DNA of 64,000 nucleotides from NCBI GenBank assembly GCA_049588075.1, contig JBAVFD010000065.1, forward strand, positions 1,870 through 65,869. Direction: 5' to 3'. Positions 21,676-64,000 of the stretch are shown here, one piece after another (the stretch's first letter is position 1; the number at the start of each line of letters is the position of its first letter). The notes beneath the pieces were generated by a model that searched no databases, was not told where the DNA came from, and was given only the letters and a program-made list of their open reading frames with translations. The position numbers were made by a program, and so were the translations under genes. This DNA is from Thiobacillus sp. (GTDB taxonomy: Bacteria; Pseudomonadota; Gammaproteobacteria; Burkholderiales; Thiobacillaceae).

Positions 21676-21703
21676 ATTTAACATAATATGCATTATGTGC
21701 ATA
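21676..21703 (-). other. dif-like XerC/XerD recombination site
   Basis: Minus strand reads TATGCACATAA TGCATA TTATGTTAAAT versus E. coli dif GGTGCGCATAA TGTATA TTATGTTAAAT: XerD arm 11/11, spacer 5/6, XerC arm 8/11. Confidence 0.88.
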
Positions 21704-21898
21704 TTATCGGGTCTTGATAAAGCCCCTAAGGGGCGTTCGCATTGCTCAAGTAGACTCGTCTGGCCACATCCCTGACCCTACTAGGCCCCCATCAAACCTA
21801 AATTCTTTCAATTTGTCAATATCTCCGCGTACATACGAACTCGAAATCAAATCGTTCGGCAAGCACCACAGGCTTTACGGGAGATCGCCGTACAGCGG

Positions 21899-22234
21899 TC
21901 AAGCGACAGCAAGCACCAAATGTCCAAGAGGTTCGGCGGCAGGCTTCACCTTGATTTCGATGTCGTAGCCCAACCGATTCAAGCAGTCCATCAACTTGCG
22001 TTCGGACAGGTTGGAGAAGTCGCCGCGCAGCATGCCGGACACCTTCGGCTGTGTAATGCCCATGCGACGAGCCGCCTCATCCTGGGTGAGCCCGAGTTTA
22101 CGCACGGCCTTGGTGATCTCGATCACCAAACCGGATTTGATTTTGAGTTTTTCGGCGTCGCGCAGACCTAGATCGGCAAAGACATTCTCCGAGCCCATTT
22201 CGACCTCAATGCCATCAATGATTCGTTTTGCCAT
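21899..22234 (-). CDS. XRE-family HTH antitoxin (HigA-like)
   Basis: ENVFADLGL, LTQDEAARRMGITQPKVS HTH and FSNLSERKLMDCL; overlaps the toxin 3' end. Confidence 0.88.
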   Translation of the reverse strand: MAKRIIDGIEVEMGSENVFADLGLRDAEKLKIKSGLVIEITKAVRKLGLTQDEAARRMGITQPKVSGMLRGDFSNLSERKLMDCLNRLGYDIEIKVKPAAEPLGHLVLAVA

Positions 22235-22592
22235 TTCGTAGCTCCTTCGCAAGCACCTCGGCAACCTTCAGCCTGGCGCGGATAATGTCCATGTCCTCTT
22301 TCGGTGTGGCGATCCCGCTCTTGCTCTTCTTCTGGAAGCAATGCAGGACGAACACGGCCTCCTCGAACTTGACGGTATAGACAGCGCGGTACGTGCCGCC
22401 GATGTCGCTTTCGACCACCTCCAGAACGCCAGCCCCGCCGAATCCCTTCATCACCTTCGCGGCGTCGTTCTGGTCGCCGCGCTGCGCGAAGTCAAGGGCA
22501 TGACCGAAGAACTTCCGCACGTCGGCAGGAAGGGCCATCAAGTCTTTTTTGCACCCCCCGACCCATACGAGCGATTTTTCTTGTGCTGCCAT
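22215..22592 (-). CDS. RelE/ParE-superfamily toxin (HigB-like, toxin-first order)
   Basis: GGTYRAVYTVKFEEAVFVLHCFQKKSK..IATPK motif. Start placed at ATG 22592; the ORF track starts at 22598. Confidence 0.88.
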   Translation of the reverse strand: MAAQEKSLVWVGGCKKDLMALPADVRKFFGHALDFAQRGDQNDAAKVMKGFGGAGVLEVVESDIGGTYRAVYTVKFEEAVFVLHCFQKKSKSGIATPKEDMDIIRARLKVAEVLAKELRNGKTNH

Positions 22593-22598
22593 AAACAT

Positions 22599-22604
22599 AT
22601 TATA
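22599..22604 (-). promoter_or_regulatory. Perfect -10 hexamer (TATAAT) of the TA operon
   Basis: Plus-strand ATTATA at 22599-22604, 6 nt before ATG 22592; no Shine-Dalgarno in between. Confidence 0.6.
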
Positions 22605-60832: not shown

Positions 60833-60835
60833 TCG

Positions 60836-61534
60836 ATGAAGAAGCCTGTGATGAAAATTCTGTTGCTTGTTCTGTTCGTTGCCACCACATCCGCTGGGTA
60901 TGCGGCTGACAACCCCCCTACTCTGCCAGAGACAAATGGCTATGGCGATAACGCAGTGGCGCGGCAGAAGTCGAGTCAGGCGATCGATGCTGCCAGTCAG
61001 GCGGCGCGCAATGGCGCGGTTCGTGCCTTCCCCAAAATCAAGGTTCCATCTTCCGGCGTGGACATCGGCCAGATCGCGGCCCGCTTCAACCAGACAGCGC
61101 AGAAGCCGGAAGACGACAATCTCATAATCTTCGTCACCTTGGGCATGCCGGGCAAAGCGCTGATAAATCTGGCCAGACAAGCCGCGCGCACGCGTGCCGT
61201 GCTGGTCTTGCGTGGGGTCGAGGGCGGGCTTGCCAAGGGGAACTGGCCGCGTGCGATGGAGGCACTGAAGCCGATTGCCGAAACGGGTGCTTCCATCATC
61301 ATCCACCCCGATTTATTCCGCGCATACAAGGTTGTTCAAGCCCCCACGTTTGTCCTGACGACAGGACAGCAAGGCGAAGCCTGCCTGAACAACCCGAGAA
61401 AGGAATGCGGCCAGAGCCTGCGCGCTACTGGCGATGTCACCCTGGATTACGTGCTTGAGCGCTGGGCACAAGGCGGCAGTCCACTGGCCGCTGAGGCACG
61501 ATCACGGCTGGCCATGCTGGAGTACCGGCCGTGA
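60836..61534 (+). CDS. trbC: TrbC (F-type pilus assembly)
   Basis: FVTLGMP, VLVLRG, IHPDLFRAY....PTFV and GDVTLDY.LE. Confidence 0.9.
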   Translation: MKKPVMKILLLVLFVATTSAGYAADNPPTLPETNGYGDNAVARQKSSQAIDAASQAARNGAVRAFPKIKVPSSGVDIGQIAARFNQTAQKPEDDNLIIFVTLGMPGKALINLARQAARTRAVLVLRGVEGGLAKGNWPRAMEALKPIAETGASIIIHPDLFRAYKVVQAPTFVLTTGQQGEACLNNPRKECGQSLRATGDVTLDYVLERWAQGGSPLAAEARSRLAMLEYRP

Positions 61535-62640
61535 AGGCTTTACTGCTGCCACTGTGTCTGGTCTCAAGTGTGACCTGTGCCGACATGACCGCAAACGATG
61601 CCTTCAATGAGGGCAACACCTTCGGCAAGGCTAATATTGGAACAGCCAAGAGCAAGATCAGCACCACCACAGCGAGCGACGCCAACACGGGAGTGCCGAA
61701 CTATACGGCCACCGATCCTGCTTCCAGCTACTACATGGGCGGCACAGGTAGCCTGACGGCGCCAGCCACGGCGGGGGTCACTGGCTGTACATCCACCGCA
61801 GGAACGGCAGATCCCGATCCACATACCCACGGGAAGTGCGAAGGCGTCAGGATGCTGATGAATGACCCTGGCAAGAAGAACGTGATGTTCCCGCTCAACT
61901 CCACAACCGATCCGCTGGTTGTCAAACGCAACATGGTGTCGGGCGATGCTGAGACATATCTCGGCAGTCTGATCGTGAGCGGGGGTTATGCCGGATGCGC
62001 AGTGAAGACGGTCAAGGATCCGGACAAGTATGAGACAGAAACCTGCAATCAATATCTGACTGCAGGGGAAGAGCGGTGCGAGGAAGTGCTGTCGGTCATC
62101 GTAACGACCAAGTTCTGCACCCCTGGTGAAATCCTCTTCGCATACAGCACTTATAAGGGAGACACGATCCGATTGATCTGCGATCCAGACCCCTCAAAGA
62201 TAAGAGTTACGGGCAATTTTAACGGGTGGTGCTATTGGGACTACAGCGCGTATCAGCACCTGGCTTTCGTGAGCGTGGGCCCCACACCCACAGTCTTGCA
62301 AAAGGGAATCGTTGCCTATTACAAGACAGGGAAAGGCGGGACTGGTCCAATCAAAGGCCCAATAGCCACCATGCATCCAGATGTGACTCCAAACAACGTT
62401 TTGTTCGGGAGCTATTACCGCCGTGGATGCATGCTGGAATTGAAACCTAGCACCTGTGATTTGAGCAATGAAACCTGCACATTCAATCTGCGTTTCATCA
62501 ATCAGTACAACTGGGATGATAGCTACTACCCCGACATTGATGTTGCCGTAACCACGCCGCCGATGAAGACCCCTCAGCACCATGCTGAGGAGGATGTCTG
62601 GGACAACCAGTGTACGGCGCTGGAGGCCAGGCTTCCATGA
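61531..62640 (+). CDS. TraN N-terminal part (position of GGI ybi) with variable internal domain
   Basis: Signal peptide, VPNY, Cys pairs, ETETCNQY...CEE and terminal W.NQC..LE motif typical of the TraN N-terminal half. Confidence 0.7.
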   Translation: MKALLLPLCLVSSVTCADMTANDAFNEGNTFGKANIGTAKSKISTTTASDANTGVPNYTATDPASSYYMGGTGSLTAPATAGVTGCTSTAGTADPDPHTHGKCEGVRMLMNDPGKKNVMFPLNSTTDPLVVKRNMVSGDAETYLGSLIVSGGYAGCAVKTVKDPDKYETETCNQYLTAGEERCEEVLSVIVTTKFCTPGEILFAYSTYKGDTIRLICDPDPSKIRVTGNFNGWCYWDYSAYQHLAFVSVGPTPTVLQKGIVAYYKTGKGGTGPIKGPIATMHPDVTPNNVLFGSYYRRGCMLELKPSTCDLSNETCTFNLRFINQYNWDDSYYPDIDVAVTTPPMKTPQHHAEEDVWDNQCTALEARLP

Positions 62641-63932
62641 TGCCGCTAACCTTGATGCGGCTGGTAGCCCGGCTACTCATCGTCACACTCCTGTTCACCT
62701 TACTCTCGTCTCCGGTGCTGGCAGGGGATGGCACCTGCGCAAAGAATTCCAGGGTTTGCATCGAGGGTCCGGAAACGCGCACGATAAGCGGCTACCCGGT
62801 GACTCGCGATTGCTGGAAATACGAAAGCAAGTACGACTGCATCTCCCAGAACTACGTGGACGATTGCGCGCCTCTAGCTGCGCAGGGGTGTGCGCAGATC
62901 GGATCAAGCTGCGTGGACTATGTGGACGGTGATCCAGCAAAGTGCTCGCTCTATGAGCAAACGTATCAATGCAAGGTGGCGGATGGTGAGTCTAAAACCA
63001 TCACGGATTGCGGCGGGCAGACCTACTGCGTGGATGGCACGTGTTTCGATGCGGGCTACACGCCGGACGGTGATTTTGCGCTGGCGATCACTGGTATGGA
63101 GGCGCTGCGGCAGGCCGGCAACTACATGGACCCGGATACCCTGACGCTGTTCAACGGCAAAAACAGCAAATGCAGGGTGACGCTCGGGATTTTTAGTTGC
63201 TGCAAGACTAACTCGATGGGGAGCAATCAGAACAACAGCGACATGATGACCAGCATGGGCGCGAGTCTGGTGAAGAGTTTCGGGACTGAATCAATCCAAT
63301 ATTTAGGGTCTACAGCAGTCTACGATTCGCTGTTCCAATCGGACGCTCCGAATTTCCTGATAAATGGAATGGAGTCAATTCTTGGGGGAAGCGGATCTTC
63401 ATCGGTGTTTAGTCCTTCGTTCAGCTATTTTGGTCTGACCGTTGGATACGGCGCCCCAGCAGCCGGTACGACCGTTCTGCTTGGGGAAAGCGGGACGTTC
63501 TTCGTCGGTTTCGACCCCGCTTCGTTTGCGATTGCCATCGCGATCTACATCATTATGGAGCTCGTTTCATGCGAACAAGAAGAGCAAATTCTTGGCATGA
63601 AGCGCGGGCAGAATCTTTGCGTTCATGTCGGAACCTATTGCTCCCAAAAAGTCCTTGGTGTCTGCGTGCAGAAGAAGCAATCGCACTGCTGTTTCAACTC
63701 CCGTATCGCACGATTGATTGCCGCTTCCGGGCGAGCTCAGCTTGGCAAATCCTGGGGGAGCCCCCAAAGCCCGGATTGCGGTGGCCTAACCCCTGCCGAA
63801 CTCCAGAGCATCGACTTTAGCTTGATCGACTTTTCCAGCGTGGTGGCGGATGTGAAGGCCAGCGTCAAAATCCCGGATTACGCGATCGACCGTGCCACGA
63901 CAAAGATCAACAGCTACTACGCCACTCCATAG
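62637..63932 (+). CDS. traN: TraN C-terminal part (mating-pair stabilisation)
   Basis: CIEGPETR.ISGYPVTRDCW, FNG....C, CVHVGTYCS, CCFNSRIARLI..GR.QL, WG.PQSPDCGG and IDFS. Confidence 0.9.
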   Translation: MMPLTLMRLVARLLIVTLLFTLLSSPVLAGDGTCAKNSRVCIEGPETRTISGYPVTRDCWKYESKYDCISQNYVDDCAPLAAQGCAQIGSSCVDYVDGDPAKCSLYEQTYQCKVADGESKTITDCGGQTYCVDGTCFDAGYTPDGDFALAITGMEALRQAGNYMDPDTLTLFNGKNSKCRVTLGIFSCCKTNSMGSNQNNSDMMTSMGASLVKSFGTESIQYLGSTAVYDSLFQSDAPNFLINGMESILGGSGSSSVFSPSFSYFGLTVGYGAPAAGTTVLLGESGTFFVGFDPASFAIAIAIYIIMELVSCEQEEQILGMKRGQNLCVHVGTYCSQKVLGVCVQKKQSHCCFNSRIARLIAASGRAQLGKSWGSPQSPDCGGLTPAELQSIDFSLIDFSSVVADVKASVKIPDYAIDRATTKINSYYATP

Positions 63933-64000
63933 ATTGATTGGAATGAAAGGCGATCATGAAGTCATCTTTGTCACTAACCATATTCAGAACATGAATCGGA

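Follow-up and report, generated by a model that had tools for sequence, protein, structure and literature searches.

A conjugative island of the gonococcal genetic island type, probably inserted at dif, in Thiobacillus

We analysed a 64,000-nt stretch of Thiobacillus sp. DNA (assembly GCA_049588075.1, contig JBAVFD010000065.1; the whole stretch is called the window), in which an island encoding a conjugative type IV secretion system (T4SS) begins at a dif-like site. Sequence comparison makes it very probable that the window holds the left part of an integrative conjugative element (ICE) of the kind represented by the gonococcal genetic island (GGI), inserted into the Thiobacillus chromosome at dif by Xer-type site-specific recombination. 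Our confidence that host XerC and XerD (XerCD) are the only catalysts is lower. The host range, the att-site design, a XerC paralogue and the cargo are new; the element is not a new kind of system.

The dif-like site spans 28 bp and reads TATGCACATAA-TGCATA-TTATGTTAAAT on the minus strand. Its XerD arm is an exact match to TTATGTTAAAT, the sole such match in the 64 kb (0.14 expected with up to one mismatch), and the 22-nt core CATAA-N6-TTATGTTAAAT is also matched exactly (0.03 expected with up to three mismatches). The XerD arm points toward a 65% GC chromosome carrying kdpFABC-DE, and the diverged XerC arm points toward the island, which has 55-60% GC (53-64% in the stretch directly after the site). 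DUF4400 (yaa), traD, the MOBH relaxase gene traI and an open reading frame (ORF) begin about 1 kb from the site, with a toxin-antitoxin (TA) cassette between DUF4400 and the site. An initial annotation, made from the letters of the window alone, had reported a dif-like site with a perfect XerD arm at about this distance from a DUF4400-traD-traI-ORF operon, and the exact arm match at 21676-21686 agrees with it.

The position of the element boundary was examined in relatives found through a TraD search with one genome per species. About 25 Thiobacillus or Thiobacillaceae contigs encoded TraD 86-100% identical to that of the window, Methylophilaceae sequences were 71-77% identical, and many loci of Paraburkholderia, Burkholderia, Achromobacter and Neisseriaceae reached 52-61%, with 55% for the N. 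gonorrhoeae GGI. Nucleotide homology between the window and every close relative ended at 21669-21685 when the relative had the TA cassette (about half of them did) and at 22702 when it did not. Twenty relatives had TraD identity of at least 87% and at least 1.9 kb of downstream sequence; all 20 carried a dif-like site at +843-854 (no TA cassette) or +1705-1725 (with cassette) from traD and shared the island-side arm and central region at the same position. The earlier proposal of a hybrid att site, with its diverged XerC arm on the element side, was thereby supported, as this arm (C' below, with D' for the element's XerD arm) and the centre travel with the element. Across 18 compared loci, the terminator hairpin, the arm TATGCACATAA and the centre TGTATA were conserved on the element side, and unrelated DNA lay beyond the XerD arm in nearly all. 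The XerD arm itself showed host-like polymorphism (TTATGTAAAAT in four loci), and in a sister lineage different C' arms (ACTTCGTGGAA and the like) occupied this position. In one relative (L118), an element end 99.8% identical to that of the window adjoined guaA in place of kdp, and the break fell exactly at 21675; the same end abutted guaA-guaB-smpB in two NCBI assemblies. These comparisons place the element boundary inside the 28-bp site, which reads as a hybrid, one arm coming from the element and the other from the host.

Sequences corresponding to all four att types were recognised among the relatives. A canonical Thiobacillus dif, ACTTCGCATAATGTATATTATGTTAAAT, was found in L014, L028 and L129. 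The last of these is element-free, has GuaA 97% identical to that of L118 and is syntenic with it at 86% nucleotide identity; its dif lies 2.35 kb past guaA, in the orientation of the L118 junction site. At the opposite end, sites lying no more than ~170 bp upstream of parA in three lineages consisted of an XerC arm resembling that of the host, TGTATA, and a degenerate XerD arm particular to each lineage, with differing left flanks (AGTTCGCAGAA-TGTATA-TTAGCGTATCG, ACTTCGTATAA-TGTATA-TTAGCGATCTA and AATACGCATAA-TGTATA-TTAGCAATTTA). The D' arm lacks even the TTATG core. Two further joints resembled attP. In L004, whose TraD is 100% identical to that of the window, the DUF4400 end led through TATGCACATAA-TGTATA-TTCCACGAAGT into genes for ParA, a PFGI-1-type ParB and DUF2857, and in L112 a terminator region like that of the DUF4400 end was joined to parA. 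Such joints are the products that would be expected from a circle or a tandem.

The junction in L014 was occupied by a second element. A filamentous prophage (L014:9955-16263; an inovirus with Zot and a G2P replication protein) lay between TATGCACATAA-TGGGCG... and a canonical dif, so that prophage and island form an array of Xer-exploiting integrative mobile elements (IMEXs) at dif, with the crossover adjacent to the XerC-side arm. This arrangement indicates that the inovirus integrated into the island's junction site, and it favours the view that the junction serves as an Xer substrate in vivo. The window junction is probably still such a substrate as well, for dimer resolution or further IMEX capture, because its XerD arm is perfect and its XerC arm has retained the conserved inner half.

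Several other features were noted at these sites. A high-depth contig of the sediment metagenome run X3 skipped 21819-22702 and ended 18 nt past window position 21686; it contained the C' arm and the centre, after which came a different arm, TGTTCTATTAA... In L004, a 19-mer beside parA, TTCCACGAAGTTGGCCGGC (L004:13799-13845), matched exactly, once reverse-complemented, the C' arm and its flank at the DUF4400-side end in the L021 lineage (L021:4620-4665), so that this lineage may have an attP close to a perfect palindrome. Around the attP-like site of L112 (L112:1380-1440) were a perfect inverted repeat of 12 bp (AAGAGCCGTATA ... TATACGGCTCTT) and, extending further, an imperfect palindrome, and an insertion sequence with an rve transposase was inserted directly upstream of it. 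About 5 kb into the parA module of L004, near the scaffold end, we observed a 60-bp unit repeated in tandem 5.4 times (L004:19138-19459).

The gene content of the window is as follows.

13389-21500, minus strand: chromosomal flank, kdpF-kdpA-kdpB-kdpC-kdpD-kdpE
21676-21703, minus strand: dif-like hybrid junction, putatively of attR type (XerD arm 21676-21686, centre 21687-21692, XerC' arm 21693-21703)
21820-22701, minus strand: TA cassette with HTH_37 antitoxin (21899-22264) and Gp49/HigB-like toxin (22215-22598), from Pfam/NCBIfam
22700 to ~23420, minus strand: DUF4400/TIGR03747 ICE membrane protein in the yaa position, from Pfam/NCBIfam
23415-25511, minus strand: TraD, type IV coupling protein, 55% identical to GGI TraD
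25477-27615, minus strand: TraI, MOBH relaxase (TraI_2 and TraI_2_C; NF041494 MobH)
27537-27977, minus strand: 146-aa ORF without a family match, first gene of the traI operon, in the yaf position
28104-49189: variable cargo slot of 21 kb between the relaxase and T4SS operons
28121-34920, minus strand: Wadjet JetD/C/B/A
34902-35762, minus strand: WYL regulator
36160-42004, minus strand: RND efflux OMP/AcrB/MFP
42107-42721, plus strand: TetR
42821-47807, plus strand: HlyD, ABC and ABC-2
47804-48802, plus strand: LpxR
49421-64000, plus strand: F-type (MPF_F) T4SS operon in GGI order, extending past the window end
49421-50014, plus strand: SLT transglycosylase
50011-50532, plus strand: OmpA-like protein
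50753-51136, plus strand: TraA
51162-51452, plus strand: TraL
ending at 52042, plus strand: TraE
52005-52736, plus strand: TraK
52736-53992, plus strand: TraB
53998-54867, plus strand: DsbC
ending at 55424, plus strand: TraV
55421-57997, plus strand: TraC
57994-58476, plus strand: 160-aa ORF
58473-59018, plus strand: S26 peptidase (TrbI/TraF-like)
58987-59643, plus strand: TraW
between TraW and TraU, plus strand: 61-aa ORF
59825-60832, plus strand: TraU
60836-61534, plus strand: TrbC
61531-62640, plus strand: TraN-N-like ORF of 369 aa in the ybi position
62637-63932, plus strand: TraN

The longest DUF4400 ORF extends to 23755, and its true start is probably just past the traD stop. All tra genes visible in the window are intact ORFs, and TraF, TraH and TraG follow the T4SS operon in relatives such as L001/L002 (95% identical to the window). 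The features of an ICE are thus present, namely a relaxase, a coupling protein, a complete T4SS (TraF/H/G being seen in relatives) and chromosomal integration.

Pachulec et al. 2014 (PMC4207684) defined GGI-like T4SS elements by MPF_F genes in GGI order. The window has F-type genes in that order and a MOBH TraI clustered with TraD and Yaa (DUF4400); TraI, Ltg, TraA/L/E/K/B and DsbC are 24-49% identical to their counterparts in the N. gonorrhoeae GGI (locus L067) and occur in the same order (tblastn). The GGI, a 57-kb IMEX of N. gonorrhoeae and N. meningitidis with an F-type T4SS, shares both halves of the backbone, that is, yaa/DUF4400-traD-traI(MOBH)-small ORF and the divergent ltg-ompA-like-traA-L-E-K-B-dsbC-V-C-ORF-trbI-W-U-trbC-ybi-traN-F-H-G (PMC4207684). 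Relatives of the Thiobacillus island resemble it further in having a parA-parB-...-ssb module at the other end, and both elements combine a hybrid dif-like site at the island end with a degenerate element arm. The description in the initial annotation as a GGI-like element outside Neisseria is therefore upheld by these identities and by the Thiobacillus host. Its two divergent operons do lie on opposite strands in GGI order, but they are not adjacent, being separated by 21 kb of cargo (28104-49189) that it did not mention, and the split traN that it noted is conserved in relatives and parallels ybi and traN of the GGI, so that it does not reflect damage.

The two islands also differ in several respects. 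In the GGI control locus, the site beside yaa was AGTTCGCATAA-TGTATA-TTATGCAATCT, with the degenerate XerD arm on the element side, in agreement with the published difGGI, which has a good XerC arm and an XerD arm with four mismatches (PMC5357621). The att site of the Thiobacillus island is inverted relative to the backbone, with the C' arm beside DUF4400 where the GGI has its D' arm beside yaa, and both of its element arms are diverged, unlike those of the GGI; the att design is thus not essentially that of the GGI. Methylophilaceae relatives, in turn, have a fully canonical site in the GGI orientation. The GGI has its oriT between the traI and ltg operons, where the window has cargo; only weak inverted repeats at 27965-28030 and 49044-49093 came up as oriT candidates, and no oriT was called. 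The host is an environmental sulfur oxidiser as opposed to Neisseria, and protein identities are only 24-55%. In Thiobacillus relatives there is a XerC paralogue that has a palindromic site to itself, and we know of none in the GGI. The GGI secretes chromosomal single-stranded DNA into the medium and needs AtlA for this. Non-Neisseria GGI-like systems are reported to lack AtlA homologues (PMC4207684), and ORF and Pfam scans at four loci found none in the 10 kb past traG of relatives. A full TraA and an S26 pilin-processing peptidase suggest a pilus and ordinary conjugation; GGI-style secretion of single-stranded DNA cannot be inferred.

A plausible life cycle can be outlined from these sites. 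The circular form would carry an attP composed of the diverged XerC arm TATGCACATAA, the host centre TGTATA and a strongly degenerate XerD arm, and would recombine with chromosomal dif, ACTTCGCATAA-TGTATA-TTATGTTAAAT. The near-end product would join the element's C' arm to the host D arm 1 kb from DUF4400, corresponding to 21676-21703, and the far-end product would join the host C arm to the element's D' arm upstream of parA. As the parA-side junction would have no usable XerD arm, FtsK-driven excision would be disfavoured. The catalysts are presumably host XerC and XerD, possibly aided by the element's XerC paralogue; the order of strand exchange and the present mobility of the window copy are presumed in the same way.

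This paralogue is encoded in relatives past TraF-TraH-TraG, where a 170-aa ORF and an optional PIN/Phd cassette precede a tyrosine recombinase of 322-323 aa, located 0.7-1.6 kb past traG in most TraG loci that reach far enough. The recombinase passes the TIGR02224 XerC equivalog cut-off (341.5 vs 335 bits), is ~50% identical to enterobacterial XerC and has intact R/HxxR/Y catalytic motifs. Directly upstream of its gene is a perfect 11-6-11 palindrome, GCATATGCTAT-TCGCAG-ATAGCATATGC (L083-L107, e.g. L084:14917-14944 and L086:14613-15584), which co-varies to GCGTATGCAAT-TCGCAA-ACTGCATACGG in more distant relatives. Beyond the palindrome, the loci split into unrelated cargo, including GGDEF-EAL with RND, UmuC/SRAP and DsrE/AhpC. 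The palindrome is absent from the window at up to seven mismatches, and a by-eye comparison of its arms with the C' and D' arms revealed no convincing similarity. Such a recombinase gene was also present in X1, a sediment metagenome run from the window's own sample, at a depth of 29 vs 26 for the element. Pfam/NCBIfam ORF scans and a tRNA search detected no integrase, transposase, rep gene or tRNA within 21.7-64 kb, and the initial annotation was correct that no integrase lies at this junction, but relatives and X1 do carry a XerC-family recombinase past traG. Because of this gene, the family departs from the strict definition of IMEXs, under which the element encodes no recombinase of its own. 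The recombinase may serve in multimer resolution, in cargo swapping or in part of the dif reaction.

Several observations weigh against insertion at dif by host Xer as outlined above. The recombinase just described makes exclusive use of host XerCD less sure, and this part of the model may not hold. The kdp flank is 83-88% identical to Thiobacillus relatives up to 21577, followed by 98 bp (21578-21675), reaching from the kdp promoter homology to the XerD arm, that are unique to this genome, and three relatives with the kdp flank (L121, L122 and L123; KdpA 91-93% identical) have no dif within 10 kb, so that no empty site was found for the kdp insertion and a rearrangement near dif must be assumed for the window copy. 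Synteny in Thiobacillus breaks upstream of kdpF, where two relatives have radA, the closest relative has clpB, and the window has dif and the island. Comparison with element-free relatives, a check proposed at the outset, therefore gave a canonical dif near guaA in L129, on the flank of L118, but none beside kdp in the three others. The centre of the window site (21687-21692) is TGCATA, a T-to-C change from the TGTATA of canonical Thiobacillus dif and all other relatives except the independent contig L120, which has TGCATA too; this centre may impede complete Xer strand exchange. The far end of the element lies beyond 64,000, with the second dif-like site of this copy outside the window, and in 27 TraG-side loci no dif-like site or half-site occurred within 10 kb past traG. 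The element would therefore exceed about 70 kb, and the second site expected in the initial annotation was met only as the parA-side hybrid sites of relatives. No single sequence examined joins the parA module to the T4SS, and tblastx gave no overlap between parA modules and the 10 kb past traG; we draw the link, by analogy to the GGI, from the two attP-like joints and from equal depth in one metagenome, as the DUF4400 end, ParA, TraG and the XerC-like gene all had depths of 70-75 in X3, which fits a single element. Lastly, no dif-like site occurred within 10 kb of traD in about 45 GGI-like loci that are more remote (TraD 52-61%; other Neisseriaceae are among them), and dif targeting is therefore confined to some branches. 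A GGI-like locus of Paraburkholderia has parA-parB ~6.9 kb past the DUF4400 end without a dif-like site (L060:18936-21908); the pair may belong to a tandem or neighbouring ICE using another att system.

The Xer-type junctions in relatives agree with the earlier claim of XerCD integration, but the XerC-family gene leaves host XerCD unproven as sole agent. One possible alternative, which we do not favour, keeps dif as the target and changes the catalyst: the element's XerC paralogue would bind the element arms and integrate and excise the island at dif with host XerD or alone, making host XerC dispensable. A conserved recombinase with intact motifs, its matching depth in X1 and the divergence of both element-borne arms from host arms are in its favour. 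However, the gene is internal and lies at neither dif junction, its palindrome is unlike the C' and D' arms, which suggests a distinct function, for example in resolving multimers or exchanging cargo, an inovirus, a phage type that normally relies on host Xer, used the L014 junction site, and the GGI and filamentous phages get by with host XerCD alone (PMC5357621, PMC9226527). A tentative and rather doubtful variant is that the element's XerC reads one or both element arms, pairs with host XerD at dif and also acts on the 11-6-11 palindrome beside its gene. If so, palindrome and recombinase would form a second recombination system, private to the element, that resolves multimers or swaps cargo.

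Complete Xer exchange requires homology in the central region, and the island could accordingly be thought to have entered via dif and then lost excision through its TGCATA centre, a defective far-end site or both, being inherited vertically since. The single transition, shared with L120, would fit this, as would the GGI itself, which is very stable owing to a divergent arm (PMC5357621). We nevertheless consider it unlikely: the visible tra genes are all intact, the 99.8% identical end in another chromosomal context indicates that the lineage moved recently, and, by analogy to CTX-type systems, XerC-only exchange resolved by replication may tolerate heterology (PMC4246890). It is very improbable that the whole 28-bp site belongs to the element, as a dif mimic for dimer resolution or stabilisation, with insertion at many chromosomal positions by some other mechanism of low target specificity. 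The differing flanks in almost every genome, the kdp relatives without dif and the dedicated recombinase could be read in this way, but the right arm swaps exactly at the centre (canonical D, TTATGTAAAAT variants, TTCCACGAAGT plus parA, phage DNA), the parA-side sites pair host-like XerC arms with element-specific D' arms, and canonical dif occurs both at the matching locus of an element-free relative and directly beside the L014 prophage. We reject, as barely conceivable, a plasmid with a dimer-resolving dif-like site or a plasmid-chromosome assembly chimera. Some plasmids do carry GGI-like T4SS and TraD-DUF4400 modules (PMC4207684), and a ParA/ParB module is part of the family; however, a Logan contig from X1, a run that contains the window sequence in full, reproduced the kdp-site-TA joint at 100% identity and even depth, the same element end abuts guaA, guaB and smpB in the two NCBI assemblies, in many genomes the island is enclosed in contigs of 150 kb to 3.3 Mb, and no rep gene was seen in the window.

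Insertion at dif also sets the island among other mobile elements. Phage-type IMEXs (TLC-phi, CTX-phi, VGJ-phi and filamentous phages of Xanthomonas and Neisseria) likewise integrate at dif, using a dif-like attP in which one arm is poor, and build arrays there with other IMEXs, comparable to that in L014; unlike the Thiobacillus island, they are a few kb long (TLC-phi being a satellite phage) and have no conjugation machinery. An attP without a real XerD arm recalls TLC-phi more than the GGI (PMC9226527). No XafT-like activator was recognised in Pfam scans of the window ORFs, which were not exhaustive. PFGI-1, pKLC102, PAPI-1 and ICEclc share with the family the TIGR03764 (ICE_PFGI_1_parB) ParB, DUF2857, a PFGI-1-class TraI domain and the TIGR03747 DUF4400, and they also encode a XerC/D-like tyrosine recombinase. 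The T4SSs of these ICEs are of the MPF_G class, and an integrase located at the end of the element inserts them into tRNA genes, whereas the Thiobacillus family has an F-type T4SS, no tRNA involvement and an internal recombinase gene. A tRNA-targeting ICE with a tyrosine integrase (PAPI-1/ICEclc type) was considered and discarded: there is no tRNA in the window, the end is a dif-like site, and the relatives' recombinase lies internally beside a palindrome, not a tRNA fragment. SXT/R391 ICEs and IncC plasmids share a MOBH relaxase with an F-type T4SS and defence or resistance cargo in hotspots, and the parA module of relatives includes an AcaB-like activator gene that recalls both. SXT integrates into prfC by its own Int, has another gene order and does not involve dif.

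GGI-like T4SSs are known from alpha-, beta- and gammaproteobacteria, and no insertion site could be determined for those outside Neisseria (PMC4207684). Later Xer reviews list the GGI as the long IMEX of Neisseria. Our literature searches yielded no report of a GGI-type IMEX at dif outside Neisseria, and the works retrieved treat the GGI as the sole 'unusually long', Neisseria-specific IMEX. The present loci point to a lineage of GGI-type conjugative islands ending inside dif in environmental Betaproteobacteria, namely Thiobacillus and, with a different site design, Methylophilaceae; exploitation of Xer by large conjugative elements would therefore be no gonococcal oddity. Natural attP variants (a degenerate XerC arm, a nearly absent XerD arm, both orientations), together with the phage array and the XerC paralogue, open questions to testing, such as by what means large IMEXs escape FtsK-driven loss and which features of the arms are important. 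In addition, the island carries defence (Wadjet) and efflux cargo among sulfur-oxidising bacteria.

This cargo occupies at least two variable slots. The one between the relaxase and T4SS operons is only 5.2 kb in L010 and 3.7 kb in L014, and in the window it includes a complete Wadjet anti-plasmid system (JetA-B-C-D) with a WYL regulator, which is therefore cargo of a conjugative element. Diverged Wadjet systems (74-85%) occupied the same slot in several relatives. On the other side of the junction, bases 1-21.4 kb are chromosomal and encode an AI-2E transporter, a PEP-CTERM protein, HlyD/ABC-2 transporters, an MFS protein, an esterase and kdpE-D-C-B-A-F. An Rfam scan gave no match at gathering level. 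The HlyD, ABC and ABC-2 set of the island (42821-47807) has the same domain layout as the chromosomal HlyD/ABC-2 cluster at 4457-9522 in the left flank. A weak dif match at 35788-35809 (three mismatches) had no XerC/XerD arm structure and was dismissed; it falls within an AT-rich palindrome, ATATGTTATA-TTTTTC-TATAACATA (35770-35815), which lies directly upstream of the WYL regulator gene and is likely an operator.

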